Part shown: piece after piece, positions 4,995-5,454 of the stretch | Numbering within the stretch: the first letter of the stretch is position 1 | Layout of the letters: each line of letters begins with the position of its first letter | IMG/VR virus record: IMGVR_UViG_2585427755_000002 | Span: 1 to 9,500 of that record | Source: a virus | Taxonomy: Duplodnaviria > Heunggongvirae > Uroviricota > Caudoviricetes | Direction: 5' to 3' (one strand) | DNA length: 9,500 nucleotides | Translations under genes and position numbers: made by a program | Notes under the pieces: generated by a model | Databases searched by the model: none | Seen by the model: only the letters and a program-made list of their open reading frames with translations | Told to the model about the DNA's origin: nothing

Positions 4995-5291
4995 ATGTTA
5001 AAGCAGGTGTATGAAATGAAAGTCCAGATTTTAAACAATAACTGTGAAGTCGTTTGGTCATACGACATAGCCGCCCCTGTAGATCAGAGCGGCGATAGCT
5101 GGACCAATGGGAAACATCAGATTATGGCTGGAGTTGTGTTCTCTTTACGCCGTGCTTTGGAACAGGCTGAAGTATTTCCATCAGACCCTGAATGGAAATG
5201 GCCTTTTTCTATTTGTCCAAATTCGGAGAGCACATTTCAGAAAATTGGTCAGAAAGTCGCACTCGAAGAGCATCAGCCAACTGTTTCCTGA
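4995..5291 (+). CDS. Hypothetical protein, first ORF after the OL-like region (alternative start ATG 5016)
   Basis: 98-aa ORF from the track. ATG at 5016 (MKVQILNNN...) has GGTG 7-8 nt upstream. The protein is acidic and does not resemble an N-type antiterminator. Its 3' end overlaps a convergent minus-strand ORF by 83 bp, so the true extent is uncertain. Confidence 0.4.
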   Translation: MLKQVYEMKVQILNNNCEVVWSYDIAAPVDQSGDSWTNGKHQIMAGVVFSLRRALEQAEVFPSDPEWKWPFSICPNSESTFQKIGQKVALEEHQPTVS

Positions 5292-5454
5292 TTTTTTCAG
5301 GTAACTCGTCGGCATCGCAGAAACAACAACGCTCAATCATGTTGAAAGCCGATTCGTAGAACTGTTTCTGCTGAGTGTCGCTGAGACAGGAAAAGAGCGA
5401 CGTTACGATGATTTTATTAATTGCATTATCAAGTTCTTTTTCATCAAAAGTCAT
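5209..5454 (-). CDS. Hypothetical protein (81 aa) antisense to the early-left transcript; moron-like gene
   Basis: ATG at 5454..5452 is preceded by AAAAGGAAAATCAA, with AGGA about 8 nt upstream. The sequence is protein-like (MTFDEKELDNAINKIIVTSLF...). I see no recognisable family. Confidence 0.45.
   Translation of the reverse strand: MTFDEKELDNAINKIIVTSLFSCLSDTQQKQFYESAFNMIERCCFCDADELPEKIRKQLADALRVRLSDQFSEMCSPNLDK

Follow-up and report, generated by a model that had tools for sequence, protein, structure and literature searches.

The question raised by this locus is what two small open reading frames (ORFs), which converge and overlap just beyond a phage repressor gene, have to do with one another. 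They lie at positions 4995–5454 of a stretch of viral DNA (Caudoviricetes) taken from IMG/VR record IMGVR_UViG_2585427755_000002, positions 1–9,500; these 9,500 nucleotides (nt) are referred to here as the window. By sequence comparison, the window represents the immunity region and early genes of a lambdoid prophage of the SfV/SfII/e14 type, with positions 4902–5900 being 99.3% identical to Shigella phage SfV and other parts matching SfII, SfIV and many Escherichia coli prophages. Compared across these and more diverged relatives, the two ORFs are genuine genes under purifying selection and make up one mobile two-gene accessory cassette, which forms the first segment of the early-left (PL) operon and fills a hypervariable cassette-exchange slot. 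More tentatively, we propose that the arrangement works as a switch between lysogeny and lysis.

The ORF list gives a plus-strand ORF at 4995–5291 (98 amino acids, aa) and a minus-strand ORF at 5209–5454 (81 aa), and the convergent arrangement described in an initial sequence-only reading, with lengths of 91–98 aa and 81 aa and an overlap of 83 bp, was confirmed at these coordinates. The plus gene most likely starts at its second ATG, at 5016 (MKVQIL, 91 aa), because homology to diverged copies begins there, a GCAGGTG Shine–Dalgarno (SD) sequence is present and the Prokaryotic Genome Annotation Pipeline (PGAP) calls the same 91-aa product. The good SD ascribed to the minus ORF is present and strong (TAAAAGGAAAATCAAATG, read on the minus strand). 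The plus protein is acidic, as had been noted (isoelectric point, pI, 4.95), and so is the minus protein (pI 4.56); both are small and hydrophilic. Among relatives the overlap ranges from about 70 bp (locus L159) to 161 bp because the tail of the plus ORF varies, and gene callers omit the minus ORF wherever the plus ORF reaches 122 aa. The plus gene is the first ORF past the region resembling a left operator (OL) and PL, and lies 5′ of a terminator at 5708–5757, so that, as read earlier, no coding sequence of this lambdoid immunity module comes between the OL/PL-like region and the pair. The minus gene (5209–5454) lies within the path of PL transcription and is oriented against it, an antisense orientation which proved constant against the host operon in all contexts examined.

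Selection on the two ORFs was assessed by comparing window positions 5015–5533 with a 68%-identical copy in another lambdoid phage contig (L005), where both ORFs are open. In its non-overlapping part, the plus ORF has a proportion of synonymous differences (pS) of 0.86 and of nonsynonymous differences (pN) of 0.18, with 37 of 61 differences at third codon positions; the corresponding part of the minus ORF gives pS 0.79 and pN 0.18 (29 of 47 at third positions), and no other frame in this comparison combines a comparably low pN with a comparably high pS. Within the overlap, the minus frame keeps some constraint (pN 0.33, pS 0.59) and the plus frame none (pN 0.39 versus pS 0.43); the conserved core of the plus protein stops near residue 84–86 and is followed by a tail of 7 to 38 residues among relatives. 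Homologues share 45–66% identity in the plus family and 34–58% in the minus family, and both ORFs are intact in 82 of 84 near-identical copies, a sample picked via the minus ORF. Both are therefore conserved across related prophages, a property on which the sequence-only reading had made its proposal depend. Single-base frameshifts in the plus gene beside an intact minus gene were seen in two Logan assemblies (L003, 66–353; L004, 1713–2000) and in P0037; these may reflect real pseudogenization or assembly errors.

Six lineages carry a convergent, overlapping pair of the same two families: the window, L005, L150–152, L153–155, L158/159 and L160. The geometry is kept through about 40–50% protein divergence, and in every pair the plus homologue runs along the surrounding phage operon and the minus homologue against it. 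In L158/159, from Salmonella, kilR and gam come next after the pair. In L153 the location is not behind cI but just upstream of holin genes, amid other accessory genes. At high identity the cassette is present in 404 of 5426 complete E. coli genomes (about 7%), and a genome-contig search for relatives of the minus protein returned none. Two observations concern the genes next to the pair. In the Salmonella prophage L158, a 384-aa protein with an HSDR_N domain (restriction-endonuclease-like; 1552–2706) is encoded between cI and the pair, within this accessory region, and may have a defence function. In a decayed prophage of E. coli Z0117EC0051 (L094, 2415–2702), a deletion has fused the minus gene to a truncated tail-fibre gene, and annotation treats the product as a hypothetical protein of 95 aa (WP_000141754.1).

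The surroundings of the cassette define the slot. Sister phages keep the leader (about 4897–5014) and the right flank and carry different cargo, the segment 5015–5533 being absent or replaced in SfII, SfIV, PhiR29, mEp460 and ST64B. In SfIV the slot holds two minus-strand genes, in PhiR29 one 242-aa minus-strand gene, in mEp460 a plus-strand helix-turn-helix (HTH) gene and in SfII a different convergent gene pair; in ST64B nothing is annotated between the leader and an STnc100-like RNA. Directly 5′ of the SfII pair (L002, 3317–3364), 14 codons from the start of the window's plus gene survive ahead of a stop codon, and this remnant at the left junction looks like the scar of a cassette replacement. 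The leader seed AAGTAGCCGC was found upstream of five of the ten other cassette loci examined.

On its right side the cassette carries a conserved element of about 70 nt, directly upstream of the minus gene, whose 36-nt core (GATACCACCGAGCCTGAAGTGGTGAAAAGACAGGCA, GATACC...GACAGGCA; window 5488–5523) is 100% conserved against a cassette background of 68%. A search with this core, from which the window's own cassette type was left out, returned 54 viral contigs with at least eight other cassette types, alongside further core variants from other species. In each type a small minus-strand gene begins about 30 nt from the core, in most cases with a convergent plus-strand ORF, and the core precedes at least nine unrelated antisense genes, including SfII_36 and genes for a BssS-family protein and YmfI-family proteins. 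Comparison of profiles with hhalign gave no relationship between the plus family and the SfII plus ORF (probability 8%) or between the minus family and the SfII_36 family (probability 0.3%), and a tblastn hint of 35% identity between cassette types was dropped for this reason. One contig (L150, 1950–3500) has two tandem convergent cassettes after a single cI, each with its own leader-like sequence and element variant; one is of the type seen in the window, and the other is a relative of the L129 type.

The element is absent from Rfam and can form three helices, termed A, B and C (Table 1). Helices A and B cross, which implies either an H-type pseudoknot or alternative folds. Their arms change together: helix B goes from ACCAC/GUGGU to ACCGC/GCGGU in L160 and ACCACGC/GCGUGGU in L150, and helix A from GCCUG/CAGGC to GAGCCUU/AAGGCUC in L160 and GCCGGG/CCCGGC in L150. 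Across 13 distinct variants 94.4% of cells in the two helices pair, with four pairs changed on both sides; none of 500 shuffles reaches the observed values, and slid controls give 19–44%. All nine wobble cells of helices A and B are G.U and none A.C when read in the minus orientation, which favours a minus-strand RNA, i.e. a leader of the antisense gene. The third helix forms a hairpin between the core and each antisense start codon, its 3′ arm including or abutting the SD. Its sequence differs among cassettes with complementarity kept (UCCUUUUA/UAAAAGGA in the window, UCCUUC/GAAGGA in L005, and elsewhere UCCUUGC/GCAAGGA or UCUUGG/CCAAGA), and it is seen in 11 of 13 minimum-energy folds. Counted on a MAFFT alignment, helix C gave no signal, because its register differs among cassette types, and the count was replaced by per-sequence folds and arm searches.

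One of the known systems closest to this architecture is the e14 prophage of E. coli K-12. It shares the backbone (a cI-type LexA-family repressor, cohE/ymfK; the leader; a small gene in the PL direction), and its ymfJ converges on and overlaps the antisense ymfI by 63 bp, compared with 83 bp in the window. An identical 36-nt core precedes ymfI, with a hairpin beside its SD; the element as a whole occupies L157 5427–5497. The proteins appear unrelated, set apart by family matches rather than by direct comparison: YmfI falls in NCBIfam NF051477, a family matched by neither of the window's two proteins, and no family was matched by YmfJ. What e14 provides for comparison is an architecture and not a function.

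How the pair might be expressed follows from its place in the immunity module. The OL-like region named in the sequence-only reading is real: two exact copies of TTGCATATCTCGCAA lie 3′ of cI and its terminator, the window holds four matches where 0.41 are expected, and related copies stand in the cro–cI spacer at 3942 and 3990. This disposition of the operators means that the plus strand beyond 4810 is the early-left direction. The position of PL itself we infer from hexamers overlapping the operators, which at 7 of 12 matches fall below the promoter-scan threshold. The leader is unexceptional in folding (z about 0), so a structured PL leader lacks thermodynamic support, and no boxA or boxB was seen on reading 4830–5015. 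The nearest plus-strand terminator lies 300 nt past the start of the minus gene and is strong (5708–5757, with a 13-bp stem at 5708–5748 and a U run; fold -25.7 kcal/mol, z = -3.27). Unless antitermination occurs, transcription from PL would thus yield a first unit made up of the leader, the plus gene, the antisense of the minus gene and the STnc100-like RNA. For minus-strand transcripts, the terminator candidate at 4926–4910 is weak (three G-C pairs; surrounding fold z = 0.46) and without thermodynamic support.

We therefore propose an excludon-like switch between lysogeny and lysis, which in our judgement falls somewhat short of an even chance of being right. The expression pattern it supposes is drawn from position and from e14. 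The plus gene would have no promoter of its own within the cassette and would be read from the CI-repressed PL, and its 91-aa product would thus be confined to induced or newly infected cells. For the minus gene, transcription or its control would come from the element directly upstream, so that expression would not depend on PL and would most likely take place during lysogeny. Since a PL transcript reaches the terminator at 5757 only after it has crossed the entire minus gene together with the leader of that gene, firing of PL should silence the minus gene by collision and antisense pairing, and the two proteins would be mutually exclusive. In K-12 e14, both the mRNA and the protein of ymfJ increase late in the SOS response, which is what CI-type control would lead one to expect, and ymfI–ymfJ is listed among convergent excludons called from RNA-seq. 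A peak near ymfI for RpoH in SELEX (systematic evolution of ligands by exponential enrichment) was set aside as irrelevant, being located inside intE. The products would also be functionally linked; more speculatively, the two proteins may act on each other or on one shared target, for example as a lysogen-expressed factor interfering with the host or with phages and an early-expressed antidote sparing the phage's own lytic growth.

If this model were true, the cassette would be a compact, portable route to having one protein only in dormancy and another only in lysis, with the switch hard-wired by geometry to the CI/PL decision. The cassette is common in E. coli, and the same architecture in K-12 (ymfJ/ymfI) makes it directly testable.

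Several observations weigh against the proposed switch. Distant minus homologues (about 35–40% identity) occur alone, in antisense orientation, in the Q-to-holin interval of L149 and L156, so the partnership of plus and minus genes is frequent and not obligatory. Upstream of the element, neither the scan nor a reading of the sequence gave a convincing sigma-70 promoter for the minus gene. The sole conserved promoter candidate lies inside the element (extended -10, TTCACC-N16-TGgTATCCT; 8 of 12 matches, not reported by the scan), and transcription from it would start within helix C, in conflict with helix C as part of the mRNA. The strand of helix C is itself ambiguous, seven variants pairing better in the minus and five in the plus orientation. 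In the e14 SOS data the ymfI signal goes slightly up and not down, in an assay that may not have been strand-specific. Finally, neither protein has a recognizable fold relative and the model of the plus protein is poor, so that the effector/antidote idea is without direct support.

The alternative that survives best, with a modest but appreciable chance, is that two unrelated accessory genes share a recombination hot spot, each an independent moron, and that their overlap is mere compaction without regulatory or functional coupling. A slot that holds many unrelated genes, minus-strand only in SfIV and PhiR29 and plus-strand only in mEp460, speaks for this; minus-family homologues do exist alone, and the C-terminal tail of the plus protein, where the genes overlap, shows no constraint (pN and pS about equal there). 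What it does not readily accommodate is that six diverged lineages keep the same two families paired in one convergent, overlapping layout, and that the pair has moved jointly to a different region of another phage, both of which are hard to explain without selection for linkage.

Rather less probable is a module that works at the protein level, toxin–antidote or abortive-infection, in which the minus protein would be a lysogen-expressed inhibitor of growth or of phages, the plus protein its neutralizer, and the geometry secondary. Tight co-inheritance fits such a module, as does an HSDR_N-domain gene next to the pair in Salmonella; a repressor-adjacent position is moreover known for prophage defence genes with cognate self-immunity, such as BstA/aba (PMC8585504). 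The proteins themselves point the other way. Neither matches Pfam, NCBIfam or PADLOC, and both are small, acidic and soluble, with no enzymatic motif (grand average of hydropathy, GRAVY, -0.40 for the minus protein; seven lysine and arginine residues in the plus protein). They belong to PHROG families phrog_3195 (plus) and phrog_3311 (minus), both of unknown function, and profile searches of both against PDB sequences gave nothing below E = 0.05. AlphaFold2 predicts the minus protein, with fair confidence, to be a three-helix bundle (predicted local distance difference test, pLDDT, 81.8); Foldseek matched this model to nothing in PDB or BFVD below E = 0.8, and its CCFC motif is not conserved. 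The model of the plus protein (pLDDT 56) was too poor for a structure search. The earlier remark that neither protein matches a recognized family thus held, in profile searches for both and in a structure search for the minus protein, neither giving a match of known function. Solo minus homologues further suggest that lack of the partner does not make the minus protein lethal, and two Logan assemblies combine a frameshifted plus gene with an intact minus gene, possibly through assembly errors.

The element admits two readings of its own. On the wider one, it is a structured regulatory RNA, made up of a pseudoknot or alternative helices and a ribosome-binding site (RBS) hairpin, and serves as a common "expression socket" for hypervariable antisense cargo, each with a PL-driven convergent partner; the result would be a widespread family of lysogeny/lysis-switched cassettes that includes ymfI/ymfJ and encodes, for example, exclusion or host-modulation factors and their antidotes. 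In this full form we consider the proposal doubtful. The element could be a new regulatory RNA, or a composite of promoter and RNA, that marks a cargo slot, and as a marker it would help to find lysogeny-expressed genes (defence, host modulation) which annotation pipelines now miss. The other reading, which we regard as unlikely, places its main action on the plus-strand PL transcript, as a hairpin and H-type pseudoknot controlling processing, pausing or downstream translation, with the minus gene being transcribed from the embedded extended -10 promoter with a short unstructured leader. That promoter is the only candidate travelling with the element, and its hexamers and TG are, by reading of the sequence, kept in the diverged L150 and L153 variants. 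On the plus strand the loop lengths (3 nt for L1, 7 nt for the A-rich L3) suit an H-type pseudoknot of the classical form, several phages have a plus-strand ORF starting 8–10 nt past the element, and five helix C variants pair better in this orientation. Against it, all nine G.U wobbles of helices A and B would become A.C mismatches on the plus strand, seven helix C variants pair better in the minus orientation, and the embedded promoter has only 8 of 12 matches and goes unreported by the scan.

It is already very unlikely from the sequence evidence that one of the ORFs is no gene at all but a shadow of the opposite strand or of a non-coding element. SfV and PGAP do annotate the plus ORF only, and gene callers do pass over the minus ORF where the plus ORF has 122 aa, but the non-overlapping part of each ORF is under strong purifying selection, each has homologues of conserved length down to 34–50% identity, and the minus family is found where no plus homologue exists.

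Among known systems, convergent overlapping pairs, morons and repressor-adjacent accessory genes are familiar kinds. The excludon is defined by convergent or divergent genes with overlapping transcripts (PMC12288877). The pair resembles it in an 83-bp coding overlap at the 3′ ends, so that full-length mRNAs must be complementary, a likeness at the level of gene layout, and in the mutually exclusive expression to be expected as the outcome. It would differ from excludons generally in that a phage early promoter under repressor control would drive one partner, tying an excludon-type switch to the lysogeny–lysis decision. With phage morons the cassette shares presence or absence among otherwise collinear phages, antisense orientation, and location at the two classical moron sites, behind cI and in the interval from Q to the lysis genes; it differs in being a two-gene convergent unit and in that the promoter and terminator candidates of the minus gene are both weak.

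Both rexAB and sieB are prophage defence genes next to the repressor. The former shares the orientation of cI and its PRM transcript and is located ahead of PL; sieB runs opposite to PL, is active in the prophage and encodes a product much larger than the minus protein, the reading frame in P22 having about 242 codons. The sequence-only reading had assigned the locus to the rex/sieB/N position, and as far as the slot goes, which is the same as in other phages, this stands; the genes themselves show no homology to rexAB, sieB or N. From RexA/RexB the locus is further set apart by the terminator and operators between cI and the pair and by the opposite orientation of the minus gene. The likeness to P22 sieB/esc and sas consists in an accessory gene in the early-left region oriented against PL. 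By the part of the account of Ranade and Poteete (1993) relayed in PMC12197685, sieB–esc of P22 and lambda is an early-left prophage accessory gene whose expression is reset by the antisense sas RNA. The minus protein has no homology to SieB (Pfam, PHROG function, PADLOC), being an 81-aa soluble acidic protein with three predicted helices, and whereas Esc, the antidote, is made in frame from inside sieB itself, the candidate partner in the window is a separate convergent gene.

Like BstA/aba (PMC8585504) and lambda rexAB, the pair is an accessory locus immediately 3′ of cI, and in concept too it would agree with them, as a lysogen-expressed function which the phage itself must neutralize on induction. 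It differs in that bstA is co-directional with cI and lies before PL, and aba is a DNA element and not a protein; a relationship was rejected, as only an RBS-like 15-mer is shared and bstA runs with cI. The P22-like phage BTP1 likewise has a small antisense gene between its repressor gene and N: it encodes 56 aa (L172, 2789–2959), is annotated "fumarate hydratase FumD" and is located between bstA and N.

Three further identities were rejected. An N-type antiterminator of the lambda kind, which would be small, basic and arginine-rich at its N terminus and have a nut site in its leader, does not suit the plus gene, in view of its pI, its seven lysine and arginine residues, the lack of a Pfam or NCBIfam match and of boxA/boxB in the stretch read, and its replacement by unrelated genes in sister phages. 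A type II toxin–antitoxin system, which would consist of two small genes transcribed together in one direction, one of them from a known toxin or antitoxin superfamily, was dropped in view of the convergent orientation and of the lack of a Pfam, NCBIfam or PADLOC match for either protein. A type I system, with a hydrophobic toxin peptide and a non-coding antisense RNA, was dropped because both strands encode hydrophilic proteins under purifying selection. What is new is the co-inherited convergent pair of two uncharacterized families, and that it belongs to a widespread slot marked by a covarying element outside Rfam, with K-12 ymfJ/ymfI as a tractable sibling.

Table 1. Coordinates of the cassette, its flanks and the immunity-region backbone in the window.
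Feature	Position	Strand	Remarks
cro	3667–3927	-	Divergent from cI
cI-type repressor gene	4025–4717	+	ORF with HTH and S24 peptidase; DNA 96.6–98.8% identical to SfII region annotated cI
Intrinsic terminator 3′ of cI	4737–4754	+	7-pair stem, then T run; terminator annotated at same place in SfV and SfII
OL-like operators	4772–4808		Exact TTGCATATCTCGCAA at 4772–4786 and 4794–4808
Putative PL	-35 TTGCAT 4794–4799; -10 TATCTT 4817–4822	+	Overlaps OL-like operators; hexamers from sequence reading
Early-left leader	4897–5014	+	Left flank of slot; conserved, common to phages with other cassettes
Plus gene (91 aa)	5016–5291	+	SfV orf33; phrog_3195; WP_021563905.1; alternative ATG at 4995 gives 98 aa
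Minus gene (81 aa)	5209–5454	-	phrog_3311; unannotated in SfV and by PGAP/RefSeq
3′ overlap of plus and minus genes	5209–5291		83 bp
Conserved element	5455–5525	-	Directly upstream of minus gene; three helices
Helix C	5462–5469 with 5482–5489		Contains SD
Helix B	5491–5496 with 5505–5510		
Helix A	5499–5503 with 5518–5522		Crosses helix B; one arm in loop of B
STnc100/PasD-like RNA	5542–5757	+	Right flank of slot; Rfam RF02076; ends in strong intrinsic terminator
YfdP-family gene	5892–6254	+	SfV orf32; next early-left gene; PF27127 in relatives; phrog_204

Further downstream of the slot lie genes for DUF2303 (YfdQ-like), HD-domain (YfbR-like), PAPS-reductase-like (PAPS, 3′-phosphoadenosine-5′-phosphosulfate) and Ead/Ea22-like proteins. 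The RNA at the right flank (5542–5757) is probably a diverged member of the STnc100/PasD group: Rfam RF02076 matches it over its full length (1–206; E = 2.9e-7) with 41.4 bits, below the gathering score of 47. STnc100 is a prophage small RNA recently grouped with PasD (bioRxiv 10.64898/2026.05.13.724894). The conserved core of the window's RNA (CACCGGGAGGCACCCGGCACCA) recurs between Q and the holin genes in L156. Towards its 5′ end (window 5563–5594) the RNA has a short 94% match to phage P1 (NC_005856, 70077–70108), and longer matches of about 70% occur in the P1-like phages RCS47 and JL22; most of these sites are unannotated, and one P1 record annotates a hypothetical protein at the match. 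The RNA and its terminator are spanned by a 226-aa plus-strand ORF (5574–6254) with an Arg-rich, GC-rich N-terminal extension, which is annotated at full length as SfIV_34 (L009, 2420–3100). This version looks like an over-annotation, the YfdP-family gene probably starting at 5892, as in SfV orf32.

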